A DNA stretch of 64,000 nt, taken from NCBI GenBank assembly GCA_937951935.1, contig CALGAM010000133.1, positions 1,543-65,542 of the forward strand. The letters run 5' to 3'. Of this stretch, positions 20,159 to 38,295 are shown piece after piece; position 1 is the stretch's first letter, and every line of letters begins with the position of its first letter. This stretch comes from an uncultured Micromonospora sp. (GTDB lineage: Bacteria; Actinomycetota; Actinomycetes; Mycobacteriales; Micromonosporaceae). The position numbers and the translations under genes are program-made. The notes beneath the pieces are model-generated. The model was not told the DNA's origin, searched no databases, and saw only the letters and a program-made list of their open reading frames with translations.

Positions 20159-20345
20159 CAGCCAGGGAGCGGGACGTCACGCCCGTGGTGAGGGTCGCCG
20201 GGCGTACCAGCGGTCAGGAGCGTGTCCCGGCGGCGGTGAACGACGACGCCGCCGGGCGCCCGGCGGCGGTGACCTCCGCGGATATCCGAAACGGGCCGGC
20301 CGCGGCGGCAATTGCCCGAAGCACGTGACTGGCGAGGGTGGGTGT

Positions 20346-23300
20346 GTGCAGGTGACCGTCTCTGCATCTGAACTTCTTGGCGACCTGGAGGGCCGGGGGG
20401 TTCGTCTCTATCTGGCCGAGGACAAACTCCGGGCGCTCGCCCCGAGAAACGTCCTCACCGAGGAACTGCGGCAGCGGATCAGCGACAGCCGGGAGGCGCT
20501 CATCGAGCTGCTTCGGCGGCGGGCCAGCCAGGCCGACCTGGCGACGGCCCCGCCGATCCGGGTGGCGGGCCGAGACGGCGTGCTACCGCTGTCGTTCGCA
20601 CAGCAGCGTCTCTGGTTCCTGGCCCAGCTCGACCCGGACTCGGTCGAGTACAACATGCCGATGCCGGTGTGGTGGGAGGGCGAACTCGACCAGGTCGCCC
20701 TCAACCGCGCGCTGGAAACCCTGCTGGAGCGGCACGAGGTGTTGCGGACCCGGCTGGTCGAGGGCCCCGACGGGGTGGCCTGCCAGGTCATCGACCCCCC
20801 GACGCGGGTGGAGCTGCCGGTGGTGGACGTGTCCGCCGAGGCCGACCCGACCGCCGCCGCGCAGGCCCTGATCGCCCAGGACGGGGCGGTGCCGTTCGAC
20901 CTCGCCACCGGGCCGCTGATCCGGGCACGGCTGATCCGGGTGAGCGAGCGCGAACACGTCCTCGCGCTCTGCGTGCACCACGTGGTCTTCGACGAGTGGT
21001 CCTCCGGCATCCTCCGGCGCGAGCTGGGGGAGCTGTACGACGCGTACCACACCGGCCGCCCGCCCCGGCTGCCGGAGCTGCCGGTGCAGTACGCCGACTT
21101 CGCGGTCTGGCAGCGCGAGTGGCTGACCGGCGAGGTGCTGGAGCGGCAGCTGGGGTACTGGCGGGACGCCCTGGCCGGCGCGCCGGTCCTGGAGCTGCCG
21201 ACCGACCGTCCCCGGCCGCCGGTGCGCTCCTCGGCGGGCGCCTCGGTGGAGTTCGAGGTTCCCGAGCGGGTCGTCGAGGGGCTGCGGACGGTGGCGCGGG
21301 CGGCCGGCGCCTCGATGTTCATGACGCTGTTCAGCGCCTTCGTCGTGCTGCTGAGCCGGTACAGCGGCCAGGACGACGTGGTGGTCGGTACCCCGATCGC
21401 CAACCGGAACCGGACGGAGATCGAGGGGCTGATCGGGTTCTTCGTGAACACCCTGGTGCTGCGCACCGACCTCTCCGGGGACCCGACCTTCGCCGAGCTG
21501 CTCGGCCGGGTTCGGGAGGTCGCGCTGAACGCGTACGCCCACCAGGACGTGCCGTTCGAGTCCGTGGTGGACGCGCTGGGGGTCAGGCGGGACCGGTCCC
21601 GGACCCCGCTGTTCCAGGTGATGTTCAGCTACGCCCAGGGCGGTGGCGCGCGGGCCGACGGGGACGGTCCGGTCGGCCCGGTCGCGCCGGCCCGGCCCGC
21701 TCCCGTCGAGGGCCGGGGCGGGCACGCCCCGAAGCCGGTCAAGTTCGACCTGGCGCTGGCGTTCGGGGAGACCGGTACCGGCGGGCTCGCCGGCGGCCTC
21801 CAGTACGCCACCAGCCTCTTCGACGCCGCGCGGATCGACCGGATGGTGCAGCACCTGCTGGTGCTGCTGGAGGCGGTCGCGGCCAACCCGCACCGGCGGC
21901 TCTCCCAGCTTCCCCTGCTGACCGCGGCGGAGGTGGCGGAGCTTCACCGGTGGAGCGGTGTCACCGCGCCGGTGCCGGCGGTCGGCGGCGTGCACGAGCT
22001 GGTCAGCGCCCAGGCGGCGGCCCGGCCGGACGCGGTGGCGCTGCGCTCCGGCGGGGTCTGGCTGAGCTACGGCGAGCTGGAGGCCCGGGCCAACCGGCTG
22101 GCCCGCTACCTGCGGCAGGTCGGCGTCGCGCGGGAGGACCTGGTCGGGCTCTGCCTGCCCCGCGGCGTCGACATGGTGGTGGCGGTGCTGGCGGTCTGGA
22201 AGGCGGGTGGCGCGTACGTGCCGATGGACCCGCAGTATCCCGCGGACCGCCTCGGCTACATGTTGGCCGACAGCGGCGCCCGGTTCCTGGTGGCGACGGC
22301 GGAGACGGTACGCGGCCTGCCGGCCGGAGCCGTGCCGCCGGAGGTCCGGGTGCTGGCGCTGGACGACGCCGAGGTCGGCGCGGCGCTGGCGGAGCTGCCC
22401 GCGGAGCCGCTCGGCCTGACCGTCAGTCCGGACCAGGCGGCGTACGTCATCTACACCTCCGGCTCCACGGGCCGGCCGAAGGGGGTGCTGCTGCAGCACC
22501 GTGGGGTGGTGAACCTGGCGGTCGCGATGCGGCCGGTGCTCCAGGCGGCCGAGGGAACGGTGGCGCTGCAGTTCGCCTCGTTCAGCTTCGACGCGGCGGT
22601 GCTGGACATGGCGGTGGTACTGGCCGCCGGCGGCACCCTGGCCATCGCCACCGCGGCGGAGCAGGCCGAGCCGTCCGCGCTCGCCGCGATGATCTCCGAC
22701 CACGGGGTGCAGACGGCCAGCGTGGTGCCGTCGCTGCTGGCCGTCCTCGATCCGGACCAGGTGCCCGGGGTGCGCAACTGGGTGGTCGGCGCGGAGCGGC
22801 TGACCGCCGGTCTGGCCCGGACCTGGGCCTCCCGGGCCCGGTTGTGCAACACCTACGGGCCGACCGAGGCGACGGTCATCACCACGGCGGTGCCGCTGAC
22901 CGTGCCCGACGGCGACCCGGAGCAGGATCCCCTCCCGCCGATCGGCGTGCCGATCGCGAACGCCACGGTCCGGGTGCTGGACCGCTCGCTGCGCCCGGTA
23001 CCGGTCGGGGTGACCGGCGAGATCTACATCGGTGGTCCGGGGGTCGCCCGGGGCTACCACCGCCGGCCGGCGCTGACCGCGCGCCACTTCGTGCCCGATC
23101 CGGTCGCCGGCGACGGGTCCCGGCTGTACCGCTCCGGCGACCTGGGCCGGTGGCGCGCGGACGGGCAGCTGGAGTTCGTCGGGCGGGCCGACAACCAGGT
23201 CAAGGTGCGGGGGTTCCGGATCGAACCGGGGGAGATCGAGCACGTCCTGCGGACGCATCCGGGCATCTCCGCGGCCGTGGTGATCGCCGACGGCGAGGGC

Positions 23301-23798
23301 GAGGACCGCCGGCTGGTCGCCTACCTCGTCCCGGCCGGTGCCGACGGGCCGCCGCCCGTCGCCGAGCTGCGCGAGTTTCTTCGGCAGCGGTTGCCGGAGT
23401 TCATGGTGCCGGCGGTCTTCGTGCCCCTGGACGCGCTGCCGCTCGGCCCGAACGGCAAGCTGGACCGCGCCGCGCTGCCGGTTGCGGACCGGGCCCGGCT
23501 CGGGCCGGTCAGCGTCTACGAGGCGCCCCGGGACGCCACCGAGGAGCTGCTCGCCGGGATCTGGGCCGAGCTGCTCAAGGTGGAGCGGGTCGGGGTGCAC
23601 GACAACTTCTTCGACCTCGGCGGGCACTCCCTGCTGGCCACCCAGGTGATGTCCCGGGTCCGGGCCGTCTTCGACGTGGAGATCCCGCTCGCCGCGCTCT
23701 TCGACCACCCCACCATCGCCGGTCTGGCGAAGGTGGTCAACCGGTCGTTGCAGGAGGCGAGCGGCAGCCAGGAGGGGCTCGAGGAGTTCCAGTTGTGA
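20346..23798 (+). CDS. Single-module NRPS: TubC-N-type docking domain - C - A - PCP - acidic C-terminal tail
   Basis: PLSFAQQRLWF, HHVVFDEW, YTSGSTGRPKG, NTYGPTE, YRSGD, NGKLDR, FFDLGGHSL; no E or TE domain. Confidence 0.95.
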   Translation: MQVTVSASELLGDLEGRGVRLYLAEDKLRALAPRNVLTEELRQRISDSREALIELLRRRASQADLATAPPIRVAGRDGVLPLSFAQQRLWFLAQLDPDSVEYNMPMPVWWEGELDQVALNRALETLLERHEVLRTRLVEGPDGVACQVIDPPTRVELPVVDVSAEADPTAAAQALIAQDGAVPFDLATGPLIRARLIRVSEREHVLALCVHHVVFDEWSSGILRRELGELYDAYHTGRPPRLPELPVQYADFAVWQREWLTGEVLERQLGYWRDALAGAPVLELPTDRPRPPVRSSAGASVEFEVPERVVEGLRTVARAAGASMFMTLFSAFVVLLSRYSGQDDVVVGTPIANRNRTEIEGLIGFFVNTLVLRTDLSGDPTFAELLGRVREVALNAYAHQDVPFESVVDALGVRRDRSRTPLFQVMFSYAQGGGARADGDGPVGPVAPARPAPVEGRGGHAPKPVKFDLALAFGETGTGGLAGGLQYATSLFDAARIDRMVQHLLVLLEAVAANPHRRLSQLPLLTAAEVAELHRWSGVTAPVPAVGGVHELVSAQAAARPDAVALRSGGVWLSYGELEARANRLARYLRQVGVAREDLVGLCLPRGVDMVVAVLAVWKAGGAYVPMDPQYPADRLGYMLADSGARFLVATAETVRGLPAGAVPPEVRVLALDDAEVGAALAELPAEPLGLTVSPDQAAYVIYTSGSTGRPKGVLLQHRGVVNLAVAMRPVLQAAEGTVALQFASFSFDAAVLDMAVVLAAGGTLAIATAAEQAEPSALAAMISDHGVQTASVVPSLLAVLDPDQVPGVRNWVVGAERLTAGLARTWASRARLCNTYGPTEATVITTAVPLTVPDGDPEQDPLPPIGVPIANATVRVLDRSLRPVPVGVTGEIYIGGPGVARGYHRRPALTARHFVPDPVAGDGSRLYRSGDLGRWRADGQLEFVGRADNQVKVRGFRIEPGEIEHVLRTHPGISAAVVIADGEGEDRRLVAYLVPAGADGPPPVAELREFLRQRLPEFMVPAVFVPLDALPLGPNGKLDRAALPVADRARLGPVSVYEAPRDATEELLAGIWAELLKVERVGVHDNFFDLGGHSLLATQVMSRVRAVFDVEIPLAALFDHPTIAGLAKVVNRSLQEASGSQEGLEEFQL

Positions 23799-23899
23799 CC
23801 GCCGGTGGTCGATGGCCATCGGTACCCGGGCGAGGGCGTGGCGGCGTACCAGCGTACGCCGCCACGGCGGAACCCGGGCCGACACGCACGGAGGTGGCT

Positions 23900-24439
23900 G
23901 TGCCGACGACGACCTCGCTTCCACAGGTCAGGATCGAGACCGGCCGTCTGGTCATCGCCGAGTTCGGGGTGTCGGACGCGGCGAACGTCGCCGTCGTCAT
24001 CGCGGCGGGGGAGTGGGACGCGCTGCCGCCCGGGGCGCCCCGGGACGTCGCCGAGGTGTGGCGGTGGCTGCGGGCCGACGTGGGCCGGTTCCGGGACGCC
24101 GGGCACGGGGTGCACCTGGCGATCCGGCAGCGGGACACCGGTGCCTACGTCGGCGCCATGAGCCTGTTCCGCCTGGATCGCCGGCGGGGGTCCGCCGAGG
24201 TCGGGTGCGGCCTGCGGCCCGCGATGCGGAGCCGGGGGTACGCCGTCGAGGCGCTGTCCGGGCTGACCGGATGGGCGACGTCCACCGGCGGGCTGCGCCG
24301 GCTCGACGCGGTCACCGCCCCCGACAACATCGCCGCACAGCAGGTGGCCGAGCGGGTTGGGTACGTCCGGGTGGGCCTCACCCGTGACCCACAGACCGGG
24401 CAGGAGATGGTCGTCTACCGGTACTCCCGGCCCGGTTGA
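23900..24439 (+). CDS. GNAT N-acetyltransferase (RimJ/RimL-like)
   Basis: GGAGG RBS; IETGRLVI, AEVG, RSRGYAVEAL, DNIAAQQVAERVGY. Confidence 0.8.
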   Translation: MPTTTSLPQVRIETGRLVIAEFGVSDAANVAVVIAAGEWDALPPGAPRDVAEVWRWLRADVGRFRDAGHGVHLAIRQRDTGAYVGAMSLFRLDRRRGSAEVGCGLRPAMRSRGYAVEALSGLTGWATSTGGLRRLDAVTAPDNIAAQQVAERVGYVRVGLTRDPQTGQEMVVYRYSRPG

Positions 24440-24506
24440 CCCGGGCCGGGGCCGGCCGGCGGCACGGCCTGCCGGTGGTGCCCGGGGTGCGGCGGCGCGT
24501 CGGGCG

Positions 24507-25205
24507 CTACCGGAGATGGCAGCGCACCAGGGTGAGGTCGTCGTCGGCGATCTCACCCTCGTCGCGGCGCCGGGCGAGGGCGTGGGCGAGCCGGTCGGCG
24601 GGGAGTGTGGCCAGCTCCGGCCAGAACGTCGCGCCGCGCCCGGTCACCCAACGGGCGGTGGCGTCGGTCGCGATGGCGATGGTGTCGCCGGGCTGTAGCT
24701 CCACGCTGGTGCGGGCCGGCGGGTCGGGGTCGCTGGTGGTCACGAGCTGCGGCCGGGCCGGGAACGTGTCGCCCGGCAGCGGCGGGTGGGCGAGACACAG
24801 CAGGCCGCGGCGCACGACGAACACGAACGTGTCGCCGACCGCGGCCACGTCCAGGCGGTACCCGTCCGGATGGGGGACGCCGCGGATCGCGGCGATCGTC
24901 GCCCCGCTGCCGCCGGCCGCGGCCCGGCGGACCCGGTCGCCGGCCGTGTCCAGGTCGAGGCCGGCCCGCCAGTCGGCCGCGGCCGCCGCCACCCAGGGCC
25001 CGGGGTCGCCGTAGAGCAGCGGCTCCGGATCGGCCACGAAGCGCCGGACGAGGCAGCGCGCCCAGTCTCCGGCGGCGAAGAGGGAGCCGGCGCCGTCGCA
25101 GACCGCGACCAGGCCGGCGCGCTCGTCGAAGCCGTACGCGTCCTGGCCGCGGGGGTCGATGCCATCCGGCCGGGGTACGCACACCACGTCGCAGTGCAGT
25201 CTCAT
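24507..25205 (-). CDS. PP2C-family (TerY-P type) phosphatase
   Basis: GQDA, VCDGAG, VGDT, ATDA and DDLT metal-binding motifs; ATGA overlap with vWA stop. Confidence 0.85.
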   Translation of the reverse strand: MRLHCDVVCVPRPDGIDPRGQDAYGFDERAGLVAVCDGAGSLFAAGDWARCLVRRFVADPEPLLYGDPGPWVAAAAADWRAGLDLDTAGDRVRRAAAGGSGATIAAIRGVPHPDGYRLDVAAVGDTFVFVVRRGLLCLAHPPLPGDTFPARPQLVTTSDPDPPARTSVELQPGDTIAIATDATARWVTGRGATFWPELATLPADRLAHALARRRDEGEIADDDLTLVRCHLR

Positions 25206-26026
25206 ATCACCCGACCCGGCGTACCCCACATGAAGAACCGCAGCAGCGACGCGGCGCCGCCGTTGAGCACGAAACCGCGGGCGCCCTTCTCGAGCGGGAA
25301 GAGGGACGTCTCGGCCAGTTGCGGCGGTATGGGGCTGGAAACCTGGTACAGCCAGGTCGCGAACTCGTCACCGACCTGGGGCGGGTGGGCCGGATACTCG
25401 ATCATCTCGGCCGCGTTGCCGGACAGGTGCAGGTTGAACAACAGCACCGAGCCGTCTGCGGTACGCAGGTTGGTCAGCGCGGTGGCCTGGGGCGTCGGGT
25501 CGCCGGTGTTGAACTGGGCGTCGGTGATGTGCAGCACGACCGGCGGGAAGGACTCCGGGTGAGCGGCCACCCAGCGGCTCACCAGCGCGACCGTGACCGT
25601 GAACGCCTCGACCATCGGGGTCACGCCGTCGCTGACCGGCTGGATCCACCGGCGGGACGGGGCGAGCGGGTCACCGGTGCCCGGCACCGTCTCGGCGTAG
25701 GAGTCGAGGTCGGCGGTGGAGACGAAAACCCTGGCCGGGTCGGCGCTCGCGTCCAGTTGCAGGGCGGGGCGCTGCAGGAGCGACCGTACGCCGTGGCCAC
25801 CGTAGCCGATCGCGGCGATGTCGCACCACGGCATCACGCGGCCGCTCTTGTCGAGGCAGCGCTGCACGAGCTCGTCCAGGAGCTGGTCGGCCGCGGCGGC
25901 CAGCGCCATCGCCCGGGGCCGGCGGGCGGCGTCACCGGCGATCGGCTCGGCCATCGAGGCGGACTGGTCGATCAGGAGCACGATGCAGCCCGGGTGGCGG
26001 CTGCTCATCCGGCGTGAGTACGTCAT
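25202..26026 (-). CDS. vWA-domain protein (TerY-like)
   Basis: LLIDQSASM MIDAS motif, GVTPM, PPVVLHITD, LLFNLHL; ATGA overlap with kinase stop. Confidence 0.85.
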   Translation of the reverse strand: MTYSRRMSSRHPGCIVLLIDQSASMAEPIAGDAARRPRAMALAAAADQLLDELVQRCLDKSGRVMPWCDIAAIGYGGHGVRSLLQRPALQLDASADPARVFVSTADLDSYAETVPGTGDPLAPSRRWIQPVSDGVTPMVEAFTVTVALVSRWVAAHPESFPPVVLHITDAQFNTGDPTPQATALTNLRTADGSVLLFNLHLSGNAAEMIEYPAHPPQVGDEFATWLYQVSSPIPPQLAETSLFPLEKGARGFVLNGGAASLLRFFMWGTPGRVI

Positions 26027-27702
26027 GCTTCCCGCCGCCTGCCGATGCCGACCACGAGGGCCGCCGCGACGAGTACGGCCACCGCGACGAGGTGGAGCAG
26101 CGGCACCCCGGTGTCCCACGGGCTGGGTAACGCGGGCCAGGAGAGCGGATCGTCCGCGACGACCGGTCGGGTGGCCACGACCGCGGCGGCCCCGACCAGC
26201 CATCCGCCGCTGCGTCGGGCCACCCCGACGCATCCGGCCAGAAACAGCACACCAACCATCGCCCCGATGACGGAGGGGGTCGCCGTCGCGATGGCGCCGC
26301 CGTCCGACGACGGCCAGGCGAGCGCGGCCGACTGCCCGAGTGCCACGCCCAGCACGGCGACGAAGTACAGGTGCGTGGCGGTGCGGACGGTCGGCCCGTG
26401 GGCGGTGAGCGGCTTCAGGTTCGCCGCCGCGGCGACGACCAGTACCAGCGCGAGTGCCGCGGCGGCCAGCGTCGGGACGAGCGGCGGTCGGCGGTCGTCG
26501 GCGACGAGCTGGACCAGGCGCGGCAGGTCGAGGCTGAGGTACGTGGCCGCGGCGCCACCGGCCGCGCCGACCAGGAACAGCCGGCCGTACGCCCAGACCA
26601 GGACACCGGCGAATGACACCACCCAGACGACCGCGGCGGTGACCAGCTGGGCCGGCTGCTCCGGTGCCCGGCCGGCGAAGAGGTGGCGGGCCAGGTACGC
26701 GGCGAGCGCCGCGAGGCCGAGCAGCCACGCGATGCCGACCGGCAGCGGCGGTCGTGTCACCGACGGGTGCCACAGCCGGGACACCGTCCACCGACGAGGA
26801 ATGGCGCTTCTCACCGATGCCTCCAGAGTGGATACCGCGTTCGGGGACCGGCGGCACATCGCGGCCAGCCGGCCTGCGAGCGCGCGGACGAAGGGGTCGG
26901 GCGACGCCGCGAGTTCCTGCCAGATCGCGCTCCGGCCCGGAGCGGTGAAGTCCTCGGCGCGGAAGATCAGGTTGTGCTCGTCGTGGTACCGGTCCCAGAG
27001 GTCCGGCGTGACCGCCAGGGCCCGCAGCGACAGGTACACGACGTGGGCGGCGAACCGGTCGGCCTTCGCACCCCAGTGCCACACGGCCGCGCGGGGGTGC
27101 TGGTAGGCCGGGTGCCCGGCCTGGGCCGGCGGTGGGTGCCTCTTCAGCGACGGCGTCCAGATGCCGTCCGGGTCGATCAGCGTGAACGTCCCTTCGCCGA
27201 CGAGCACGTTGGCGTGCTGGAGGTCGCCGTGCGCCACCCTGGCCACGCTCATCCGCCGCATCAGCTCGCGCCACCGCTCGGCGGTGGCCAGCAGCCACGC
27301 CGGGTCGTGCAGGTGCGCGGCGACGGCCTCGTGCAGCGGTGGGTCGTCGGCCCACGGCCCGACCAGAATCGGCAGCCGGTGTCCGTCGACCAGCAGCGCG
27401 TCGTCGTGCCACTGCCAGGCGCAGATCTCCGGCACGGGCACCGTGGCCAGGTAGTGGCTGATCGCGCGGTATCGCGCGCCCTCCGCCGGGTCGGGGCGCA
27501 GGAAGCAGCGGACGGCGAAGCGGCGTCCGGTGGGATGGTCGAGGCGGTACACGAAGGCGTGCTGGCCGATGCGCTGCTCCGGCCGGCCGCGCGGGCCGGG
27601 TGCGGGGCGGCTCTGCCGCAGTTCCGGATGGGTGAGCGAGGTCTGCGGGTGGGCCAGGGCGGCCGCGTACTGGTGCGGCTGGATGACGAGCTCAGCCGGC
27701 AC
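26023..27702 (-). CDS. Ser/Thr kinase-like protein with C-terminal multi-TM region
   Basis: FAVRCFL, HGDLQHANVLV, LIDPDG, GHPAYQHP; hydrophobic C-terminal ~250 aa. Confidence 0.82.
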   Translation of the reverse strand: MPAELVIQPHQYAAALAHPQTSLTHPELRQSRPAPGPRGRPEQRIGQHAFVYRLDHPTGRRFAVRCFLRPDPAEGARYRAISHYLATVPVPEICAWQWHDDALLVDGHRLPILVGPWADDPPLHEAVAAHLHDPAWLLATAERWRELMRRMSVARVAHGDLQHANVLVGEGTFTLIDPDGIWTPSLKRHPPPAQAGHPAYQHPRAAVWHWGAKADRFAAHVVYLSLRALAVTPDLWDRYHDEHNLIFRAEDFTAPGRSAIWQELAASPDPFVRALAGRLAAMCRRSPNAVSTLEASVRSAIPRRWTVSRLWHPSVTRPPLPVGIAWLLGLAALAAYLARHLFAGRAPEQPAQLVTAAVVWVVSFAGVLVWAYGRLFLVGAAGGAAATYLSLDLPRLVQLVADDRRPPLVPTLAAAALALVLVVAAAANLKPLTAHGPTVRTATHLYFVAVLGVALGQSAALAWPSSDGGAIATATPSVIGAMVGVLFLAGCVGVARRSGGWLVGAAAVVATRPVVADDPLSWPALPSPWDTGVPLLHLVAVAVLVAAALVVGIGRRREA

Positions 27703-28726
27703 CGACGAGCACCCGCCCCCGATACACCTCGCCGTCGATCCGCGTCCACAGCCGTAGGCACGCGATGACGTGGCCCCTCGGACCGGTGGTGCGGGCGTCG
27801 TGCTCGGTCTGCCCGCCGAGGTCCTCGTACCGCCCGCTCAGCACGGTCAGCTCCACCCCCGGCATGGCACCCACCACCGTCACCGTGTCGCGGCGGATCC
27901 GGTCGTACCAGTTCGCCCACCAGCTGCCGGGCTCGGCGGGCTGGCTGTGCCGTACCGAGCAGAGCCCCTCGTCGACCGCAACGAGGGCCCGCGCTCGTGC
28001 CCGGCCGTCGCCGGCGTCCCGGTAGGCGCGCAGGCGCCTGAGCAGCTCGCCCCGGAGCGCGCGCAGATCGTCCTTGCGGTGCGGCCGGCGGGCCTGGGCG
28101 TAGCCGTCGACGCTCGGGAGGAAGTCGATCAGGTTGGGGTCGTACGGGCCGAGCGCGAGCAGCTGGGTCGCCGCGACCGCGATCCGGTGATCGACGCCGA
28201 GGTCGCCGTCGCGCAGGCCCAGCGCCTGCGCGATCTCCGGATCGATGTCGGCCTCCGGCCGCAGGCGCAGCCCCTGCCCCGACACCGGATCGAAGAGCGC
28301 GACGCGTTCGCCGAGGCTCGGCACGTCGATCCAGGATCGGACGGCGGTGGCTGGCGGTTGCTCGGGCGGCGGTTCCGCCAGGCGGAGCGCGGCGACCGGT
28401 ACCGCGACCGGTGGCGCGGGCGGCGCGGAAGGCGGGGGCCCGGCGGGTGGGGGCCCGGAGGCCGGCGGGGCCGAGGGCGCGGCCGGAGCCGGCGCGGGTG
28501 GCGCTGGCGCGGGTGGCGCCGGAGCAGGCGAGGACACGGGCGCGACCGGGCGTTGCAGGAGCGCGGCCAGGTCGCCGCGCAGGCTCGACAGGGCGGTCGC
28601 CGCCTCCTGGGTGGCCGGCGCGGGGGCGGCGGCCAGCGCCGCGTCCAGCCCCACCAGGTATGCCCGGACCACCGTGGCGACGGCGTCGTCCCGGCTGGTC
28701 AGTAGCACACTCAGCTGGCGGTACAT
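27692..28726 (-). CDS. Hypothetical protein with Pro/Ala linker and possible GrpE-like C-terminus
   Basis: Coupled to both neighbours; C-terminus GHVIACLRLWTRIDGEVYRGRVLV. Confidence 0.7.
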   Translation of the reverse strand: MYRQLSVLLTSRDDAVATVVRAYLVGLDAALAAAPAPATQEAATALSSLRGDLAALLQRPVAPVSSPAPAPPAPAPPAPAPAAPSAPPASGPPPAGPPPSAPPAPPVAVPVAALRLAEPPPEQPPATAVRSWIDVPSLGERVALFDPVSGQGLRLRPEADIDPEIAQALGLRDGDLGVDHRIAVAATQLLALGPYDPNLIDFLPSVDGYAQARRPHRKDDLRALRGELLRRLRAYRDAGDGRARARALVAVDEGLCSVRHSQPAEPGSWWANWYDRIRRDTVTVVGAMPGVELTVLSGRYEDLGGQTEHDARTTGPRGHVIACLRLWTRIDGEVYRGRVLVGAG

Positions 28727-31700
28727 CACTGGAGACCGTTGAACGGGTCGGAGTTGTCGTCGGCGACGTTCCGCGGCTTCAACTGCGCGGTGTAGACCGC
28801 CCCGGGATGCTCGTCCATCGCCCGCAGGCTGTCGGCCTTCAGGTACGCCGGCCGGTTGCGGTGCAGCCGGAACACGCCCTGGTCGTCCAGGCTCGCGTAC
28901 CAGCCCTTGTCGCCCACCCCAGGGTTGGCCGGCGGTGGGGCCACCCGGTGGGCCGGCGCGCCCGGTTCGTCGCCGACGAGTTCGAACCGCCAGCCGTGGT
29001 CGGACGCCGGGGGCAGCGGCTCGCTGCTGATCAGGCCGTTTCGTTCGACTCCGGCGTGGTCATCCCAGAACCGGTGGGTCCAGGCCGGTGACTCGGGCAG
29101 GTTCGGGAAGACCTCCCGGGTCGGCGTCAACTCGGCGTTGCCGACGGCCACCCGCAGCCGGCGGGCCAGGGCGAACGCGTCGGCGGCGGACATCGGAACG
29201 GCCACGTCCTGCGACGCGGGCGGGGTGCCCTCGGTCGCCGGCACGACGTGCAACGACAGTCGGCGGCGACGGACAGGGTGTCCGGCCACAACAAGCGGGG
29301 TGCCCTCGGTCGCCGGCACGACGTGCAGCGGCCGCTTGTCCTCCGGCTGGGTCCGCCACACGTGCAGCACCAGCTCAAGCTGCGGGTTGATCTCCACTCG
29401 GGCCTGCTTGTCGTGCAACCACCGGTCGTCCTGCGAGTCGCCGCTGTGGGGAAGCGCCGGCTCGTACCCCTCCTGCTCGGCGACGTTCCCGACGTCGAAG
29501 TAACCCCACAGGAGGTCCTGGTCCCGGTCGCCCTCGACGATGACGCGGTGGATGTTGATCGGGCGTCGCAGCTGGTCCAGATCGCGCTCCAGGAAGCGCC
29601 GTTCGCCGTCCGCGAGGAACTCGGTGTTCGCCCGGAACAGATCCTCCCCGCCGGACATGACGGAGAACCTGAAGCTCGCCGCGAGCGTCTGGAAGACGTT
29701 GTCCACGTCCACCCGGATGTCGAGGCCCCCGGTCTGGACGACCCGCTCGGCGTTGCCCGGGCCGCCGAGGGTGCGCATGCGCTCGGCCCATACCGCCCCG
29801 ATCGAGGTGGCGGACTTGGCATGGTCGGCGTCCAGCAGCAGCGCGGTCGGATCCCACAGCAGGTTGGGGTGTTCGCGGGCCGCGGTGGCGAACGCCTCGT
29901 CGAAGACCTCGCGCACCAGCGGCAGCGCGCTGCCCCGTCCGGTGAGGATCAGCCGGTCGAGGCGCTCGCGGTGGTCGCCGAACCGGGTGACGACCAAGTC
30001 CACCGCGATCTTGGCCAGCTGCTCCACAACGGACCGCGCCAGCACGTGGAACCTCTCGGCCGTCAGCGACACGGGGACACCGCCGCTGCCGATCACCTCG
30101 TCGACCTCGTCGGCGGCGAGCGTGAAGTCCTTGCCCTGCCCGAGATGGTCGATCTTCGCGCGCTCGGCGATGCGCCACAGCCGCTGGAAGGCCCGGCGGC
30201 GGGCCGGGTCCTCGCGCCAGCGGGTCGGCACGAGCTGCTCGACGGCGTTGCGGTGCGGCGGCACCTTCTGGCCGCCGCGGCTCCGCCGGTCCGTGGAGTT
30301 GAGGTAGGCCAGCTCCGCCTTGGTCAGGGCGTCCTTCACAGGCTTGCCGTCGCGCCACCAGTCGCCGGTCTTGTCCATGCGGGTGACCGCGTCGTTCACC
30401 GTCGCGCCAGCGCGCCCCTCCGCGTACTCGGTCAGGAGCGCGTCGGCGATGGCGGCCTTCAGCCAGTGGAAGACGCAGAGCGTGATGTAGTCGCCGCCCC
30501 GGTTCTCGCGGCCGGTGCTGCCACGCAGCGAGGGCGACACGTGGTAACACTTGCCGTGGCCGGCCGGGGCGGGCCCGACGTTGACCGGCGAGACGTCCAG
30601 CAGGTGCATGCCGAACAGCGCGATGTCGGTCGTGCCACCGCCGATGTCGACGACGAGCAGGTTCTCGGTGAACGCGGCCGGGTTGTTCGTCGCGCGCATC
30701 CGAGCGCGCAGCGCTTCGATCCCGACGTACGGGTCGGCCCCGATGTCACGCATCAGGTAGTAGAAGCCCGCCGCGATCGCCTCGTCGTAGCGGTTGTTGA
30801 CCTCCAGCACCCCGGTGTGGCGACGTACCCCCTCGACCAGCGCGGTACGGGCCGCGCCGTGCAGCACCGTCGGGTACGTCACGATGACCCGACCGATCGG
30901 GCCGTGGTCCAGGTCGGGATCCTTCGCGATGGCGGCAGCGCTGCGGTCGACGAGGTCGGCGATCGCGCGCACGACGACGTCGTCGGTCTTCTCCAGCAGG
31001 TCCTGGTGCCCCGGTGGCCGCCCGAAGTGGCGCTTGAGGCCATGGATGACGAGGTCCTCGCTGTCGTCCCTGGGCGGACCGACACGGACCTTGCCCGACT
31101 CGTCGATGCTGACCACGCTGGACAGCACCGTCTCGCCCTGGTCGCCCAGCGGCAGCTCGTGCAGATTCCACCGGTCGGGTGCGGGCGCGGCGAACGCCTC
31201 CGCGTACGCGGCGTACAGCCGGCCGGTGAGCCAGTCGCGCAGGCGTTCGCCGGTGAACGGCGCCTGCGACTCCAGCTGCCGGACCGTCTCGTGCAGCAGC
31301 GGCGCCCGGTCGTCGGTCTCCTGACGCAGCGCCGCGGCGAGATCGGGGCGGGTGGCGTCGTCGCCGAGCACCTTCCTGGCCGCGGTGGTGGCCAGTCGCT
31401 CCCACGTGTCGTCGGCGAAGCCGCCCGGGCCGACCTCGTCGAGCAGCTCGGCGATCCGCCGACGGAGCACCGTGGTCTGGCTGCGGGGCAGCGGCGGCGT
31501 TGCCCGGCTGGTCTCGTCCCACAGGGTTGCGGTGCAGGCGGTCGTGCCGAAGTCGACGGCGAGGATTCCGTGGTGCCGCTCCGGCGTGTGGGTCCGTGGC
31601 GGGTCGGTCTTCGCCGCCTCCTCCGGCACCTCCGTGGTGTCATCTGGCGTGGACGCGACGGCGGGTGCCCCCCACACCAGCCGGAGCCGCTCGGTCACCG

Positions 31701-32067
31701 TCACCCGGTACGGCACCCAGGCGCCGGAAATGTCCTGTTGCTGCACCTCGGCGGTCACCCGCAGCGTGACCTCCTGCTGACCCACCGGCCCGGGCAGCAG
31801 GTCGCTGGTGGCGGGCACCATCCGCGATCCCGGCACCGCACCGGGCTCGGCCCGCCATGCCCGTTCCAGCAGCGGCAGCAGGGCACCGTCCAGGGGCGGC
31901 TCGGCTGTCTCGACGGCGACGGTCAGCCAGTGCAGCCACACCGTCGCGCCGGCCGCGTCCAGCCGCACGTCCGGCAGGCGGACGCCGTGCGGGCCGGCGT
32001 CGATCCGGTAGCGCTGCTGGTCGTCGAGGCCGGCGACCAGCGAGATCGACAGGGCAGCGGGCGCCAT
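28726..32067 (-). CDS. Large Hsp70/actin-fold ATPase (SrfB-like)
   Basis: AVDFGTT (phosphate 1), VTYP, DEAIAA, VDIGGGTTD (phosphate 2), GGD, LTGRGSALP (adenosine). Confidence 0.82.
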   Translation of the reverse strand: MAPAALSISLVAGLDDQQRYRIDAGPHGVRLPDVRLDAAGATVWLHWLTVAVETAEPPLDGALLPLLERAWRAEPGAVPGSRMVPATSDLLPGPVGQQEVTLRVTAEVQQQDISGAWVPYRVTVTERLRLVWGAPAVASTPDDTTEVPEEAAKTDPPRTHTPERHHGILAVDFGTTACTATLWDETSRATPPLPRSQTTVLRRRIAELLDEVGPGGFADDTWERLATTAARKVLGDDATRPDLAAALRQETDDRAPLLHETVRQLESQAPFTGERLRDWLTGRLYAAYAEAFAAPAPDRWNLHELPLGDQGETVLSSVVSIDESGKVRVGPPRDDSEDLVIHGLKRHFGRPPGHQDLLEKTDDVVVRAIADLVDRSAAAIAKDPDLDHGPIGRVIVTYPTVLHGAARTALVEGVRRHTGVLEVNNRYDEAIAAGFYYLMRDIGADPYVGIEALRARMRATNNPAAFTENLLVVDIGGGTTDIALFGMHLLDVSPVNVGPAPAGHGKCYHVSPSLRGSTGRENRGGDYITLCVFHWLKAAIADALLTEYAEGRAGATVNDAVTRMDKTGDWWRDGKPVKDALTKAELAYLNSTDRRSRGGQKVPPHRNAVEQLVPTRWREDPARRRAFQRLWRIAERAKIDHLGQGKDFTLAADEVDEVIGSGGVPVSLTAERFHVLARSVVEQLAKIAVDLVVTRFGDHRERLDRLILTGRGSALPLVREVFDEAFATAAREHPNLLWDPTALLLDADHAKSATSIGAVWAERMRTLGGPGNAERVVQTGGLDIRVDVDNVFQTLAASFRFSVMSGGEDLFRANTEFLADGERRFLERDLDQLRRPINIHRVIVEGDRDQDLLWGYFDVGNVAEQEGYEPALPHSGDSQDDRWLHDKQARVEINPQLELVLHVWRTQPEDKRPLHVVPATEGTPLVVAGHPVRRRRLSLHVVPATEGTPPASQDVAVPMSAADAFALARRLRVAVGNAELTPTREVFPNLPESPAWTHRFWDDHAGVERNGLISSEPLPPASDHGWRFELVGDEPGAPAHRVAPPPANPGVGDKGWYASLDDQGVFRLHRNRPAYLKADSLRAMDEHPGAVYTAQLKPRNVADDNSDPFNGLQ
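29220..29327. repeat. 33-bp direct repeat flanking a 42-bp spacer, in frame inside the Hsp70-like gene
   Basis: GCGGGGTGCCCTCGGTCGCCGGCACGACGTGCA at 29220-29252 and 29295-29327; protein shows LHVVPATEGTP twice. Confidence 0.85.
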
Positions 32068-34436
32068 CAGATTCTGTCCCTCTCCGGCTCATCGAGCTCG
32101 CTGAGCAGACTGAACGGCTTGGTGGACTCGCCGGGGAGGGCGTCGCGCAGCTGGGGCGGGTAGGCGGCGTGCACGAACTGCTCCCACGAATCGGGGTGGA
32201 ACCATGCCTCCTGCAGCTGCTCCAGCGCCTCGCGCAACACGGCTGTGCGCTCCCGCAGACGACTCGCCCACGCCTCAAGGCCGGCGCGGACCACGGCGTT
32301 GGACAACGTGTACTGGAGCCGCGCGATGTTGACCTGGTGGCGGTCGGTGCCCGGGCCCGGCTCCGGGTGCCAGGCGAGGCGGTACTCGGGCCGGAGCGGG
32401 AACGGGTCACGAGCCTGGCCGGTGCTGTCCGGCTGGTCGGCGCTGTCCAGGCGGGCCTTGAGCCAGCCCACCGTCACGGCCTTGGCCAACTGCTCGCGAT
32501 GCTCGTCGAATGTGGGCACCAACCGGTCCCGCACCGGGTCGATCGCGGCGCGGAACGCGTCGGTGAGTCCAGCGAGCTCGCGTTTGCGCCTGGCCAGCCA
32601 GGTGAGCACCAGCAGATCGGCCACCTCCCGGCCGTCCTGGCAGGCCGCCGCGCGCGCCTGCGCGAAATCCTCACGCAGCTCGTCGCCGAGCACGGGCAGG
32701 CCGCGCGGGTTGGATCGGACCTGCTGTTGATCGACCGCTTCCCACACCCGCGGCCACAGCCGCCAGTTGCTCACCCGACGCAGCGCCCGGCGGGTCACCT
32801 CCTCCGGCCCGGTCAGCCCGTTCTCCAGGCGGTAGTCGCGCCGGAAAACGTCCAGGTCGCAGCGCTTCAGCGTGTCGAGCAGCTGGTTCCGGGCCGCCCA
32901 GCACACCTCCGCACGCAGCGTGTCGCGGTGCTGCTCCGCGTCGTCGCGCCGGCGCTCGTACCACGACCGCAGGGCGGCCTCGGCCGGCTCCAGCGCCGCG
33001 TCGAGCTCGACCTGGAGGTCGCGCAGCCGCTTCTCCTTGCGGGTCAGGCCGACGCGCACGGCGTGTCCGGTCAGCAGCTCGCGCAGTCGGCGGATGCCGC
33101 CGTCGATGCCGAAATCGGAGAGCGGGCCGGCGATCCCTCGGCGCTCGGCTCGGTCGCCGAGGGCGCCCCACGCCCGGGCCCGTCGGATCTTGGTCTGGCG
33201 CCAGTGATCCAGTGACTCTCCGGCCGGTGGCGGCACCGGCGGTGGAGCGTCCGCCGGGCCCAGCGCCCACGCGGTGACGGCCGACGCGAACACCACGTCG
33301 TTGCCGGCCAGTTCGTCGCCGCCGGTCGCGGTCGCCCACGCGGCGGCCAGGCCGCCCAGCGCGGGCGCGTGGCGGATGTCGTCGTCGGTGACGACGCCCA
33401 CCCGGGACTCCAGCTCGGGCGCGGCCGCCGGGTACTGGTCGAACTTGTTCACCACGACGATCGCGCGCTTCTGACCGCTGGCGGCGGCGAACTCACGCTG
33501 CAGCTCGGTGACGACGGCCGCGTCGGGGTGCAGCGGTTCCATGACCACGACGAACGCGTCCAGCTCCGACATGACGCGGCGCAGCAGCAGCTCGTCGCGG
33601 ATCTGTGCCTGGTCCGCGCCCCGCCCAGGGGTGTCGCAGAGCACCACGTGCTCGCCCGCGCGCTTCTCCAGCGGCCAGTACCGCTGCGGCACCGTGACCG
33701 TGATCTCCACCCGCTCGACCAGCCGGCGGCTCGTTTCGAGGGTCGCCGGGTCCTGCAGGCGCGCCGCCGGGATCGGCCCCGGCACGGGCCAGTGCGGGAC
33801 GGGCGGACGGAAGCCGGCGCCCCGGCCGATCATCAACAGGTGTCGCCGCGCCACGGGCCACGGCACCGTGGCCGGCGGGCTGCCGACGAGGTGGGGAAGG
33901 CCACAGACCGCGTCCCGCAGGTCGATCAGCTCCCACACCCGCGGCCGCAGCTCCGGACGGGGCCAGAGCACCTTCTCGCACCACGCGCTGAGCTGCGACC
34001 ACGACAGGCCCTCCGGGCCGGGCAGGTGGAACGGCGCCGCCTCCGCCCGCAACACCTTGACCAGCTCGTCCCGGTAGAGGTCGACCGTGGCCCGGTCGAG
34101 GTAGTGCACGGTCGCGTCGGGTGCGGGCGTGGTCGCCGGCACCTGCGCCACCACCGGGCGCACCTCGATGATCGCCCCGGTGGCCGCCTGGTCGGCGACG
34201 GGCAGCAGGCCGGCGTCGCCGAGGAGGAAGCCCACCAGCACGGACTTCCCGGTCTTGAAGCCACCGCCGAAACCGACCCGCACCGGCGCCTCGGCCGCTG
34301 CCTCGACCGCGGCCACGGCGTCCCTTACCCGAGCGACAAGGGCGGGGTCGATTTCGTCGCGCCCGGGGTGCTCCAGCACTCTGGCCGCATATTGGGTGGC
34401 GCGCTGGCGAATGCCGGGAATGCCTTCCGTGGACAT
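32067..34436 (-). CDS. Dynamin-like (TRAFAC) GTPase with helical C-terminus
   Basis: G1 GGFKTGKS, G2 AT, G3 DTPG, G4 NKFD; GGAGG RBS; TGATG overlap with the next gene. Confidence 0.85.
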   Translation of the reverse strand: MSTEGIPGIRQRATQYAARVLEHPGRDEIDPALVARVRDAVAAVEAAAEAPVRVGFGGGFKTGKSVLVGFLLGDAGLLPVADQAATGAIIEVRPVVAQVPATTPAPDATVHYLDRATVDLYRDELVKVLRAEAAPFHLPGPEGLSWSQLSAWCEKVLWPRPELRPRVWELIDLRDAVCGLPHLVGSPPATVPWPVARRHLLMIGRGAGFRPPVPHWPVPGPIPAARLQDPATLETSRRLVERVEITVTVPQRYWPLEKRAGEHVVLCDTPGRGADQAQIRDELLLRRVMSELDAFVVVMEPLHPDAAVVTELQREFAAASGQKRAIVVVNKFDQYPAAAPELESRVGVVTDDDIRHAPALGGLAAAWATATGGDELAGNDVVFASAVTAWALGPADAPPPVPPPAGESLDHWRQTKIRRARAWGALGDRAERRGIAGPLSDFGIDGGIRRLRELLTGHAVRVGLTRKEKRLRDLQVELDAALEPAEAALRSWYERRRDDAEQHRDTLRAEVCWAARNQLLDTLKRCDLDVFRRDYRLENGLTGPEEVTRRALRRVSNWRLWPRVWEAVDQQQVRSNPRGLPVLGDELREDFAQARAAACQDGREVADLLVLTWLARRKRELAGLTDAFRAAIDPVRDRLVPTFDEHREQLAKAVTVGWLKARLDSADQPDSTGQARDPFPLRPEYRLAWHPEPGPGTDRHQVNIARLQYTLSNAVVRAGLEAWASRLRERTAVLREALEQLQEAWFHPDSWEQFVHAAYPPQLRDALPGESTKPFSLLSELDEPERDRI

Positions 34437-34789
34437 GCCCCTCCGCCGATCCACTCAGACGGTCCGGATGCGCCGATCGTATTGGACGGCGCGCCTTCCG
34501 GGAATAGGTCAGTGGCTGCAGAAATCAGACTGACGCATACGTCCGACCCATCCGTTTACTCAGGGATGCGGCGCGCCGCCGCTCGGGCCGGCACGGCCGT
34601 CCCGTGCCGCACCGTCCACAGAAGAGACCCCGCGCCGCACCGTCCACAGGGGAGTGAATCCGGCCGCACGTCAGGAGGCCGGTCAACCGGTGGATCGCGT
34701 CGTGGACCGCGTAGCCCTACGGTCCGGCCCGGGACGTTCGCACCGTCCCGGGGCCGGAGCAGGTGCCGCCACCGCATCAAAGCGAGGAC

Positions 34790-35125
34790 CGGTGGTTTCG
34801 AGTGGTTGTTGCAACGAGGTAGGTGTCGAGGGCCTGGGCTGGTTTTGTTTGGTTGAGGATCTGGCGGGGTGGCCGTCGAGTTCGCGGGCGATGGTGTTGA
34901 GGTTGGTTTGGGGGTAGGTGCGGAAGTTGAAGGTGCTGCGGGGGAAATGTTCGCTCAGGAGATTATTGGTGTCTTCGTTGCTGCCGCGTTGCCGCAGGCG
35001 TGGGGTCGCAGAAGTAGACGCCGCGGTCGGCGGTGAGGGTGAAGGTGACGTGGTTGGTCGGTTTGCTGCCCTGGTCTCCGGTGTGGTCCTGCGTGGTTCG
35101 GTCGGTGGCCACGTCGTGAAATTGA
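34790..35125 (-). mobile_element. Degenerate IS30-family transposase 3' fragment and right end
   Basis: Frameshifted GDQGS...VYFCDP / QRGSNEDTNNLL...FP...IAREL, matching IS30 C-terminal motifs; TTGCAACAACCACTCGAAACC end-like sequence; lower GC. Confidence 0.75.
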
Positions 35126-35129
35126 TATT

Positions 35130-35504
35130 GAGAGCACGGCAAGGATCACGGTCCAGGGCCGGTGCCAACCCCAGAGACGGCACGCATCTACCGGCACCGC
35201 CACCTGCTGTGCGACCTGTGCTCGCGCCGCATGTTCGGCAAGACCAAGCGGCGACACCACAGGAACGAACCCCTGGTACGACACGCACCCAGACGCCTTG
35301 ACCGTGCGGGGACGCGATCCCTCACCTCGGAACCGGAGGCGCTAACCAGGACAGATAGGCATCGATCCAATGATCGGCAGGGAGGTCGTCGCCCAACTGC
35401 CACGGGCAGTCACCGCTTCTCGGCGGTGGCAGTCGGATGAGATCCGACAACGGGCCGGACGAGTACACCGGTGCTCACCCGGCTGTCCGGTCTGGTGTCT
35501 GACG
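35130..35504 (+). pseudogene. Remnant of a large serine recombinase (Zn-ribbon fragment)
   Basis: RQGSRS.../ YRHRHLLCDLCSRRMFGKTK resembles the recombinase Zn-ribbon; the region abuts the tRNA 3' end. Confidence 0.5.
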
Positions 35505-35576
35505 TGCCCCCGGCAGGATTCGAACCTGCGCACCCGCCTCCGGAGGGCGGTGCTCTATCCCCTGAGCTACGGGGGC
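35505..35576 (-). tRNA. tRNA-Arg(CCG)
   Basis: GCCCCCGTAGCTCAGGGGATAGAGCA-CCGCC-CTCCGGA-GGCGG-GTGCGCAGGTTCGAATCCTGCCGGGGGCA; CCA not encoded. Confidence 0.96.
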
Positions 35577-35767: not shown

Positions 35768-36451
35768 CTACCGGCCGCAGCTGGGCAGCGCGTGTAGCAC
35801 GATGTGTGCGGGCAGCCGTCGGGGCCACTCGGCGCGGGTCCAGGAACCGTCGACGACGACGTGGATGCCCCGGCCGTCGGCGCCGCTGAGCCGCAGCAGG
35901 AAGTCCCGGGTCAGTGGCGGGTCGACGTTCGGGTTGGCGATGAGGAAGCGCACCTGGCCGCGGGCCGAGACCGCGGAGAGGACGTCGGCGGCCGGCACCA
36001 CGCCGTGCAGCCGGGTCCGCCCGATCCACCAGACGTCGGCCCGGTGCTCCAGTGCGGTGCGGAGGATCACCGGGTACTCCCGATCCACCCACGCCGCCAC
36101 CGCGTCGACGCAGAGCGCGCAGGCCCGGTCGGTCGGCTGGCGCGGTCCGAGGCCCCAGGCACGCAGGTAGCCGCCCATGTCCGCGGCGTCGACGGGGAGG
36201 CCGTACCGGCGCTGGGCGAGTGCGGTGACGCTGCGCCGCGTCCAGAGTTCCTCGTCGAGCCCGAGCTCGTCGGGATAACTGCCGCGGAGCGCCTCGATCA
36301 GGTCCAGTTCCTGGTCGCGGCTGAGTGCCCCGCCGACCTCGCCCGCCCGCTGGCCGCGGCGTACGGCCGCCACCGCGCCGTCGCCGCCAATGGTGTGTCG
36401 ACGGCACCAACTGGTGACCGACCGACGTCCGTCCCGGAGAGCAACCGTCAT
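35768..36451 (-). CDS. IS630-transposase-derived winged-helix protein, DDE apparently lost
   Basis: LWTRRSV...YLRAWGL.P..P..RA, W..REYP.I; WWIG where IS630 has WGDE. Confidence 0.6.
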   Translation of the reverse strand: MTVALRDGRRSVTSWCRRHTIGGDGAVAAVRRGQRAGEVGGALSRDQELDLIEALRGSYPDELGLDEELWTRRSVTALAQRRYGLPVDAADMGGYLRAWGLGPRQPTDRACALCVDAVAAWVDREYPVILRTALEHRADVWWIGRTRLHGVVPAADVLSAVSARGQVRFLIANPNVDPPLTRDFLLRLSGADGRGIHVVVDGSWTRAEWPRRLPAHIVLHALPSCGR

Positions 36452-37407: not shown

Positions 37408-38295
37408 CTACATCGTGTCGCCGGCGACGTTGTCGCGCGGCGTGGTGCCGGTCGCGGTGATGCCGCCGGAGCAGGACGCGCCCGGCTCCACGCTGGCGTT
37501 GACCCGCAGCGCGTCGATGAACTCGTCGATGCGGCCGTCGTCGGCGTCGTCGACCTTGAGCTGGTAGCCCCAGGCCTGCAGCGAGATCGGCCGGTCGAGG
37601 TTCTCCACCGGGCTCATCATCATGTACTCGTTGCCGCGGACCTTGTTGGCCAGCTTCTCCACCTGGTCGGCCGGCAGGTCCGGTCGGTAGGTGATCCAGA
37701 CCGCGCCGTGCTCCAGGCTGTGCACCGCGTGCTCGTTGGCGATCGGCGCGTCGTAGACGTCGCCCATGCAGTTCTGCCAGGCGTTGTTGTGGGTGCTGCC
37801 GACCGGGGGGTTGATCTTGTAGGTCTGGGGGCCCGGCTCGTGCGACTTCTTGCCCGGCAGCGGGTCGATCACCGACGGGTCGCTCTCCCGGTAGTTGACG
37901 ATCCCGTCGATCGCCGCCGCCTTCTCCTCCCAGCTCCTGCCGTTCAGGATCACCGCGTACGCGCCGTACCCGATGATGCCGGCGGCGAGGAGCCCGACCG
38001 CGACGAAGATGCCGATGGTGCCCCACGAGCGGCCGTGGCCGACCTTGACGGGCGCGACCGGTCGGCGCTGCCGCGACTTCTTGCCGCCGGTGCGACCGGC
38101 CGGCACCCGTCCCTTGGAGGTGCTCTTCGCCGCCGGCCTCGTGCCGGTCGCCCTGCCGTCCGCGGCCGCCCTGTCCCCGGCCGCCGGACCACCCTCGGCG
38201 GTCTTCTCCGCGACGGCCTTGCCGGCCGGAGCCTTCTTGCCGGTGCTGACCACGGACGGACGGCGCTGTTCGCCGCCCGAGGTGCTGATGCTCAT
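37408..38295 (-). CDS. DUF3105 protein
   Basis: PPVGSTH, VHSLEHGAVWITY, ISLQAWG. Confidence 0.88.
   Translation of the reverse strand: MSISTSGGEQRRPSVVSTGKKAPAGKAVAEKTAEGGPAAGDRAAADGRATGTRPAAKSTSKGRVPAGRTGGKKSRQRRPVAPVKVGHGRSWGTIGIFVAVGLLAAGIIGYGAYAVILNGRSWEEKAAAIDGIVNYRESDPSVIDPLPGKKSHEPGPQTYKINPPVGSTHNNAWQNCMGDVYDAPIANEHAVHSLEHGAVWITYRPDLPADQVEKLANKVRGNEYMMMSPVENLDRPISLQAWGYQLKVDDADDGRIDEFIDALRVNASVEPGASCSGGITATGTTPRDNVAGDTM

Follow-up and report, generated by a model that had tools for sequence, protein, structure and literature searches.

The window analysed here, a 64,000-nucleotide stretch of DNA from an uncultured Micromonospora sp., contains an operon of six minus-strand genes. The first three, which we refer to as the core, encode a dynamin-like GTPase (gene 1, 789 aa, 32067..34436), a divergent Hsp70 (gene 2, 1113 aa, 28726..32067) and a proline-linker protein (gene 3, 27692..28729, 345 or 344 aa with a start at 28729 or 28726, respectively). 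The three accessory genes encode a TerY-P-type Ser/Thr kinase (gene 4, 559 aa, 26023..27702), a TerY-type von Willebrand factor A (vWA) protein (gene 5, 274 aa, 25202..26026) and a PP2C phosphatase (gene 6, 232 aa, 24507..25205). Comparison with related loci shows that the conserved unit consists of the three core genes, and that TerY-P is one of at least five exchangeable modules found with it.

All junctions overlap. Genes 1 and 2 share TGATG at 32067; genes 2 and 3 meet in GTGATG at 28726-28729, the ATG at 28726 being the likely start of gene 3; genes 3 and 4 overlap by 11 bp (27692-27702), which requires a GTG start; and ATGA lies at 26023 between genes 4 and 5 and at 25202 between genes 5 and 6. 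On re-reading, these positions bear out the six overlapping genes of the initial annotation, and its domain calls stand as well, with the named motifs all present and PADLOC matches to TerY, PP2C and STK_OB. Because the G+C content at third codon positions resembles that of host genes (0.91-0.95 across all six genes versus 0.92-0.96 in five host genes), we regard the six open reading frames as real coding frames. A promoter scan gave nothing beyond chance.

Core proteins

The dynamin-like protein has all of its GTPase motifs intact (G1 G58xxxxGKS65, G2 T86, G3 D268TPG and G4 NKFD). A family profile of 23 relatives matched SynDLP (E 2.6e-8) and BDLP (E 2e-4) in the PDB, and among Atlas clusters the closest are Dynamin_N (score 0.98); the window protein alone gave no Pfam match, although its orthologues do. 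Its best-scoring PADLOC match is the anti-phage protein LeoA (E 3e-8), over 73 residues around G3 and G4. Hydropathy gives no transmembrane helix in this protein, and the three-gene core as a whole is free of predicted ones. With G1-G4, a long helical region and its resemblance to solved dynamin-like proteins, gene 1 is, by sequence, a bacterial dynamin-like protein for which a role in membrane remodelling is predicted.

Gene 2 carries the motifs VDFGTT, DEAIAA and VDIGGGTTD. Its AlphaFold2 (AF2) model, with a predicted local distance difference test score (pLDDT) of 82, resembles DnaK (Foldseek E 3e-15; VIA Z 26-29, model residues 166-1098 on DnaK 2-505) and comprises an extra N-terminal beta domain, a nucleotide-binding domain with insertions and a substrate-binding beta domain. 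All of 99 aligned homologues retain D172, K345, D428, E429, D474 and K638, and we take the motifs to match these invariant residues to D8, K70, E171 and D194 of DnaK. The C-terminal end, DPFxG(H/Q), is also conserved. The helical lid is absent, since DnaK is aligned only up to about residue 505 and the modelled protein does not end in a helical bundle. As modelled, with both domains and the catalytic residues, gene 2 is a member of the Hsp70 superfamily. It was rejected as a canonical DnaK, with 16.9 bits against a cut-off of 822 for TIGR02350 and the lid missing. Separately, residues ~917-955 (window 29320-29210) hold a short internal duplication of low pLDDT, in which LHVVPATEGTP occurs twice and which is missing from P0007, a homologue at 84% identity.

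Gene 3 encodes a proline linker and a conserved C-terminal domain ending, by alignment and AF2 model, in a GrpE-like helix-beta head (pLDDT 89 for the domain). The top nine Foldseek rows are all GrpE at E values of 0.06-0.64, which are not statistically significant, and in the Atlas structure search GrpE occupies rows 4-5, below the naming bar; these rows lend weak support to the GrpE-likeness put forward in the initial annotation. A wide fold search with VIA returned no GrpE in the top 50, the best hits (Z 6.7) being helical bundles and nothing specific; none of 21 members matched GrpE or any other family in Pfam, and the profile of gene 3 had no match among PDB sequences. From the model, and with the position of the gene as backing, we suggest that gene 3 is probably a GrpE-like, private nucleotide-exchange factor of the Hsp70.

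Accessory kinase, vWA protein and phosphatase

In PADLOC, gene 4 matches STK_OB (3e-45), gene 5 TerY (1.4e-46) and gene 6 PP2C (2e-19). The kinase match is limited to residues 10-294 (profile 7-291 of 562), and by hydropathy the C-terminal half has, instead of an OB fold, about six hydrophobic segments predicted to be transmembrane. The kinase has the motifs HGDLQHAN and DPDG, and D160, N165 and D177 are present in 119 of 119 nearest homologues. At the position of the beta3 Lys, 117 of 119 homologues have Arg, while several stand-alone triads of the family have Lys; with Arg as the family norm, we make no claim that the Lys-to-Arg exchange renders the kinase dead. The vWA protein has a metal ion-dependent adhesion site (MIDAS) of the form DQSAS (DxSxS). 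The phosphatase, which matches Pfam PP2C_2 at E 5.5e-5, retains its metal-binding Asp residues in the motifs CDGA, GD, TD and DD. Encoded together, the TerY vWA protein, the PP2C and the Ser/Thr kinase constitute a TerY-P triad.

Composition of related loci

We compared 46 loci (the window, L001 and L012-L055), excluding L056, in which a distant Hsp70 (E 1e-69) is followed by a vWA gene; genes in related loci were called with our own codon-bias caller, and their starts are approximate. The dynamin gene lies directly upstream of the Hsp70 gene in 46 of 46 loci, one of them cut by a contig end. A gene-3 homologue, detected with an iterated profile that was built from the family's own members and matched no other gene, follows Hsp70 in 43 of 46; it is missing from L028 and L055, and L032 reaches its contig end. 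By identity, the Hsp70 and the dynamin have the same nearest neighbours in 36 of 42 loci, and the Hsp70 and gene 3 do in 32 of 42, a concordance that kinship alone could yield. The TerY-P triad, by contrast with this fixed trio, occurs in 6 of 46 loci. It has the window order in three of these (the window, L001 and L012), has the vWA and PP2C genes on the opposite strand in L033 and L034, and lies upstream of the core in L028. The initial annotation had treated the six genes as one conserved system, a view that gives way here to a unit in which only the first three genes are fixed.

Other modules are found beside the core. In eight loci (L014-L021), a membrane-anchored vWA protein and a Tubulin_2 protein of 1000 aa follow the core; 14-15 loci (L035:16789-19178, L036:941-3267, L040, L022, L026 and others) carry a ZorAB-like pair together with an unknown protein and a PP2C; seven have a DUF4407 module; and four (L029:8404-9866, L030, L031 and L052) have, in the slot after gene 3, a truncated kinase with a transmembrane segment. 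A DO-GTPase2 neighbour was seen in one locus (L024). Predicted membrane proteins occur in five of the module types, as judged from three members of each cluster. In L020, a VMAP-C gene and an AAA ATPase gene lie directly upstream of the core, and in P0103 (1549 aa) a TIR_2 domain is fused in front of the Hsp70 homologue.

The ZorAB-like pair comprises a two-helix transmembrane protein with a long helical tail and a small protein, k5, with the transmembrane motif GWLFAD in 13 of 14 rows. No Pfam or PADLOC match was obtained for k5; it is called MotB/ZorB from this motif, which we presume to resemble the MotB Asp motif. The PP2C of these loci bears an N-terminal extension. In its own right, this is a new setting for a pair resembling ZorAB or MotAB. 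The truncated protein is a homologue of the TerY-P kinase (hhalign E 2e-6) that has no catalytic loop, ends in one C-terminal transmembrane helix and is accompanied by a small anchored protein.

In the tubulin loci, the dynamin has lost G1, G3 and G4 in eight of eight cases, while G1 is kept in the 37 others of 45 examined. These eight loci form one clade, sister to that of the window, in trees made with FastTree, which gave long-branch warnings. Where a tubulin-like GTPase has been added, the GTP motifs of the dynamin are lost, from which we surmise that the Hsp70 cycle works for the polymer that is active in each case.

These comparisons bear on whether triad and trio merely travel together as independent cargoes, TerY-P defending alone and the trio doing something else. 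Among 400 other own-family genomes, TerY-type vWA genes occur in 16 and lie beside the core in only two of these, so that 14 of 16 stand away from it; in addition, the triad is missing beside the core in L013, to which L012 is sister. On the other side stand the overlapping junctions, the order of the six genes that three genomes share at 35-81% identity, and a truncated relative of the kinase that occupies this slot in four more loci. Moreover, the vWA tree implies at least two gains or losses of core association, and we conclude that TerY-P was recruited to the core at least twice. We consider independent cargoes improbable and favour a functional connection between trio and module.

Two further candidates were set aside: k11 and k13 as degenerate dynamins, for which hhalign gave no support, and P0132, a 2001-aa dynamin-Hsp70 'fusion' that was left unused, its junction resembling an off-frame stretch before the Hsp70 start. 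Near the core or instead of it, dynamin or DO-GTPase genes are also paired with other Hsp70 genes (L025:13405-19184, L026:16012-19170, L056:10236-15252), which include an Hsp70-WD40 fusion and an Hsp70 followed by a vWA gene.

Insertion site, distribution and hosts

The operon lies in a block of 11,082 bp (24422..35503, no strand assigned) that abuts the 3' end of a minus-strand tRNA-Arg(CCG) gene (35504..35576). In the closest same-genus genome, G014, the distance from the GNAT gene to this tRNA gene is 331 bp, versus 11,082 bp in the window; window positions 19292-24421 are 89% identical to G014, in which the 3' end of tRNA-Arg(CCG) then follows 331 bp on. None of 17 same-genus stretches 3' of tRNA-Arg(CCG) matched the inserted block, and none of the 17 same-genus genomes gave a full-length Hsp70 match. 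Streptomyces polygonati has all six genes in the same order at 59-81% identity. Because the window Hsp70 is 68% identical to that of S. polygonati and only 41% identical to two own-family copies, we propose transfer between families. From these alignments, the block is one horizontally acquired insertion at the tRNA 3' end, as the empty site in G014 also supports for the tRNA-linked block of the initial annotation; loss in 17 relatives is a less economical alternative.

Besides the six genes, the block holds only a broken IS30-family transposase remnant (34860..35090, minus strand), recognised by blastn and in a six-frame view and matching DNA under annotated IS30 transposases of Streptomyces plasmids (E 3e-8 and 1e-7). 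A transposase-like HTH_33 open reading frame (35768-36373) was rejected as island debris, as it lies beyond the tRNA gene and all 17 same-genus genomes have it. This winged helix-turn-helix gene, at 79-87% DNA identity across those genomes, is possibly domesticated. Gene content at the tRNA-Arg(CCG) site differs across the genus: G011 (L058, 1-7589) has at the same tRNA gene a 7.4-kb integrated element with Prim-Pol, DUF3987 and a DDE_3 transposase, and with a 48-bp copy of the tRNA 3' end as attachment (att) site.

Hsp70 matches were found in at least 22 of 400 own-family genomes (one of the distant L056 type), in at least 20 of 401 Streptomycetaceae genomes and in 1 of 400 genomes of a phylum-wide sample, the first two counts being floors from a stricter first look. 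The patchy distribution expected at the outset is therefore seen at every level, with 0 of 17 in the genus, ~5% in the two actinomycete families and, across the phylum, 1 of 400. Presence at ~5% together with cross-family likeness is the pattern of a mobile, accessory system. The Hsp70 family comprises 267 clusters at 50% identity (E < 1e-30). A look-up of 20 representatives, about half of them named, yielded actinomycetes (Streptomyces, Actinoplanes, Actinomadura, Kineosporia), filamentous cyanobacteria (Nostoc, Rivularia, Okeania, Planktothrix) and one planctomycete; the named hosts are filamentous or multicellular.

These hosts could point to a developmental or compartment-forming apparatus of filamentous growth, controlled by phosphorylation and acting in cross-membrane formation, septation or vesicle release. 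Tubulin-like and dynamin-like polymers are cytoskeletal, and the DynAB proteins of Streptomyces act in sporulation septation. An apparatus of this kind is hard to reconcile with the finding that, within the same families, ~95% of searched genomes gave no match, nor did any of the 17 genus relatives, and we give a developmental role little credence. Altogether, the data describe a real, mobile system that we read as a variant of the GTPase/Hsp70 conflict kind and not as a fixed six-gene system.

Two features elsewhere in the window deserve mention. A biosynthetic cluster at 10248-24439, common to G014, comprises a BTAD regulator, a type III polyketide synthase, two enoyl-CoA hydratase-like genes, an ABC transporter, a thioesterase, a one-module non-ribosomal peptide synthetase and a GNAT gene; the synthase and the two hydratase-like genes presumably represent a DpgABC-like arrangement. 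In a DUF3105 gene, 165 bases (37977-38141) are missing from a high-depth contig of metatranscriptome X17, which may reflect a strain variant or RNA structure.

Proposed function

We propose a model in which the trio and its exchangeable module form a chaperone-gated membrane-remodelling system for defence or conflict in filamentous bacteria, and hold the chances that this is correct to be even. In this model, the membrane-anchored kinase, with the PP2C as its opponent and the metal-binding vWA protein tuning it, would register insults to the envelope, phage adsorption or injection for example. The signal would then act on the ATP cycle of the private Hsp70, which would release or load the dynamin; a lid-less substrate domain and an exchange factor of its own would suit one dedicated client rather than general folding. 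The soluble dynamin may polymerise where the module marks the membrane, and the polymer could seal, pinch off or sacrifice part of the filament, thereby limiting spread.

We favour defence because of the patchy, mobile pattern, the multicellular hosts and the conflict-type modules, namely TerY-P, vWA + Tubulin_2, DO-GTPase2, the ZorA-like/MotB-like pair, the TIR fusion and the VMAP-C/AAA neighbours. In agreement with this, vWA + Tubulin_2 and DO-GTPase2 are described in the accessible part of PMC7159879 as parts of GAP1-N2 conflict systems of multicellular bacteria.

The same machine might instead serve general envelope-stress repair after heat, pore-forming antibiotics or wall damage. The defence-island setting proposed in the initial annotation did not hold, there being no other defence gene in the window island and no such setting in 30 related loci, and this would fit a repair function, as would the occurrence of the strain in compost, bioreactor and sludge metagenomes. 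Likewise, the sections available of three papers discuss cyanobacterial dynamins as membrane-dynamics proteins (PMC5827413), propose FtsZl1-vWA operons as membrane-remodelling machines (PMC2875224) and link TerY-P triads to tellurite stress (PMC11090510). Set against this, ~5% patchiness, movement between families and the rapid exchange of modules are what one would sooner expect of conflict genes than of stress housekeeping, the TIR fusion also speaks against repair, and the host genome has further dynamin genes that could do the repair. We consider a repair function possible but rather unlikely.

Several points weigh against a chaperone-gated defence system as we picture it. An anti-phage role is something that we infer for the operon. 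Contigs of metatranscriptome X17 extend over parts of the Hsp70 gene and the junction of dynamin and Hsp70; they also span the non-coding positions 34249-35416, so that they may stem from DNA carry-over. Kinase activity is uncertain, given the Arg at beta3. No J-domain gene was seen in the operon, and the GrpE rows for gene 3 fall short of significance. Four loci are module-free (L013 and L055, together with L032 and L043 at contig edges) and the kinases of L033 and L034 have no membrane part, a membrane sensor thus not being obligatory. The loss of GTP motifs counts as one event because the eight tubulin loci are one clade, and the ZorA matches are weak, at best 2e-5, and lie in the coiled-coil tail. 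As for mobility, neither an att duplication nor an integrase was found in the window, and there was no match in 72,556 plasmids, 50,697 phages or viral contigs. Finally, 5 of 114 neighbouring proteins from 30 loci match PADLOC at 1e-10, a rate for which the background was not measured, and these five do so apparently via generic domains (cNMP-binding, TPR, partial mad2/mad3).

It is tempting to speculate, more tentatively than for the model itself, that multicellular bacteria share an immune chassis in which a dynamin polymer is gated by an Hsp70/GrpE cycle of its own, unrelated sensors plug in, and the infected part of the filament is walled off or sacrificed. The sensors would be the TerY-P kinase switch, the ZorAB-like ion-channel pair, vWA-tubulin with a dead dynamin, and TIR. 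Such a chassis would be a prokaryotic counterpart of chaperone-controlled large-GTPase immunity in actinomycetes, filamentous cyanobacteria and planctomycetes. If true, a reusable dynamin-Hsp70-GrpE chassis could be named and known anti-phage modules would be wired to a membrane-remodelling output; the phosphorylation target of TerY-P, the role of dynamin-associated Hsp70 and the hyphal containment of infection would become testable in one small operon. Direct testing is possible because the six-gene version, at 59-81% identity, is present in a cultured Streptomyces.

Relation to known systems

In the TerY-P anti-phage type ascribed to Gao in 2020, the kinase is reportedly fused to a C-terminal OB fold. 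The window triad was not assigned to this type, as hydrophobic segments make up the C-terminal half of its kinase. All three window proteins match the PADLOC models, yet the kinase has about six predicted transmembrane helices in place of an OB fold or zinc ribbon, the order is kinase-vWA-PP2C, whereas L091 and stand-alone loci with the kinase in view have vWA-PP2C-kinase, and the triad is joined to a dynamin core. The window triad is thus a TerY-P variant. TerY-P has been reported, in the part of PMC7699616 available, to act against T7-like phages.

The actin/Hsp70-fold protein beside a P-loop protein is an arrangement that we take to be reminiscent of SrfABC of Salmonella and Xenorhabdus, and the window Hsp70 gives a weak match to the SrfB profile of Pfam (E 2e-5), some homologues also being labelled 'virulence factor SrfB'. 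SrfABC is described in the accessible text of PMC6950479 as a heteromeric complex cytotoxic to cell lines, which raises the idea of an antagonism or toxin complex directed against other organisms. The SrfB match nevertheless spans 70 residues of a 992-position model and, at 23.3 bits, lies under the cut-off of 27.1; neither SrfA nor SrfC is matched on the six genes, and the insertion holds no export genes. Membership of SrfABC was rejected, and a toxin complex of this kind is very improbable.

Eleos (LeoA, LeoBC), in the available part of its description (bioRxiv 10.1101/2022.12.12.520048), likewise employs an anti-phage dynamin-like GTPase, to which the LeoA match relates gene 1. The window has a single dynamin with Hsp70 partners, the LeoA match covers 73 residues only, and LeoB and LeoC are not matched among the six genes; membership of Eleos was therefore rejected.

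FtsZl1 (Tubulin_2)-vWA operons (Makarova and Koonin 2010, PMC2875224) combine vWA and tubulin-like proteins with kinases and a GTPase, and the FtsZl1-vWA pair is present in 8 of 46 core loci. In contrast, the portion of that paper available does not name Hsp70, GrpE or dynamin, and the window is without tubulin. Also similar in outline are the GAP1-N2 DO-GTPase systems (Kaur et al. 2020, PMC7159879), for which the accessible text describes multicellular bacteria in which a GTPase core is combined with varying themes that include tubulin + vWA, HSP70 + GrpE and kinase(-TM) + PP2C + vWA. There, the core consists of a DO-GTPase, GAP1 and an FNIII protein, with HSP70/GrpE optional, whereas the window has a dynamin core in which the Hsp70 and GrpE-like genes are fixed. 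No Pfam match to DO-GTPase, GAP1 or FNIII was found on the six genes at E 0.1, and membership was rejected.

The initial annotation did not recognise the combination as a named system. This stands insofar as no full PADLOC system was matched, but the pairing of dynamin and DnaK is already in print for cyanobacteria. We found no literature on the trio or on swappable modules in a search that did not extend to journals behind subscriptions, to the supplements of bioRxiv preprints or to the PMC7159879 source data. The pairing in print is the 'chaperone clade' of cyanobacterial dynamins (Jilly et al. 2018, PMC5827413), 11 genes from filamentous cyanobacteria, the locus Nos7524_3124 among them, in which, according to the accessible part of that review, a dynamin gene precedes a gene with a DnaK domain that is labelled 'molecular chaperone' or 'Virulence factor SrfB'. 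That part lists no third gene, modules, actinomycetes or experiment. The Hsp70 homologues of Nostoc, Rivularia, Okeania and Planktothrix bear those same labels, and from genus and label the 'chaperone clade' pairs probably belong to the same family as the window core. A lid-less DnaK-like domain has also been proposed, in the part of PMC12642450 available, as a sensor in defence modules.

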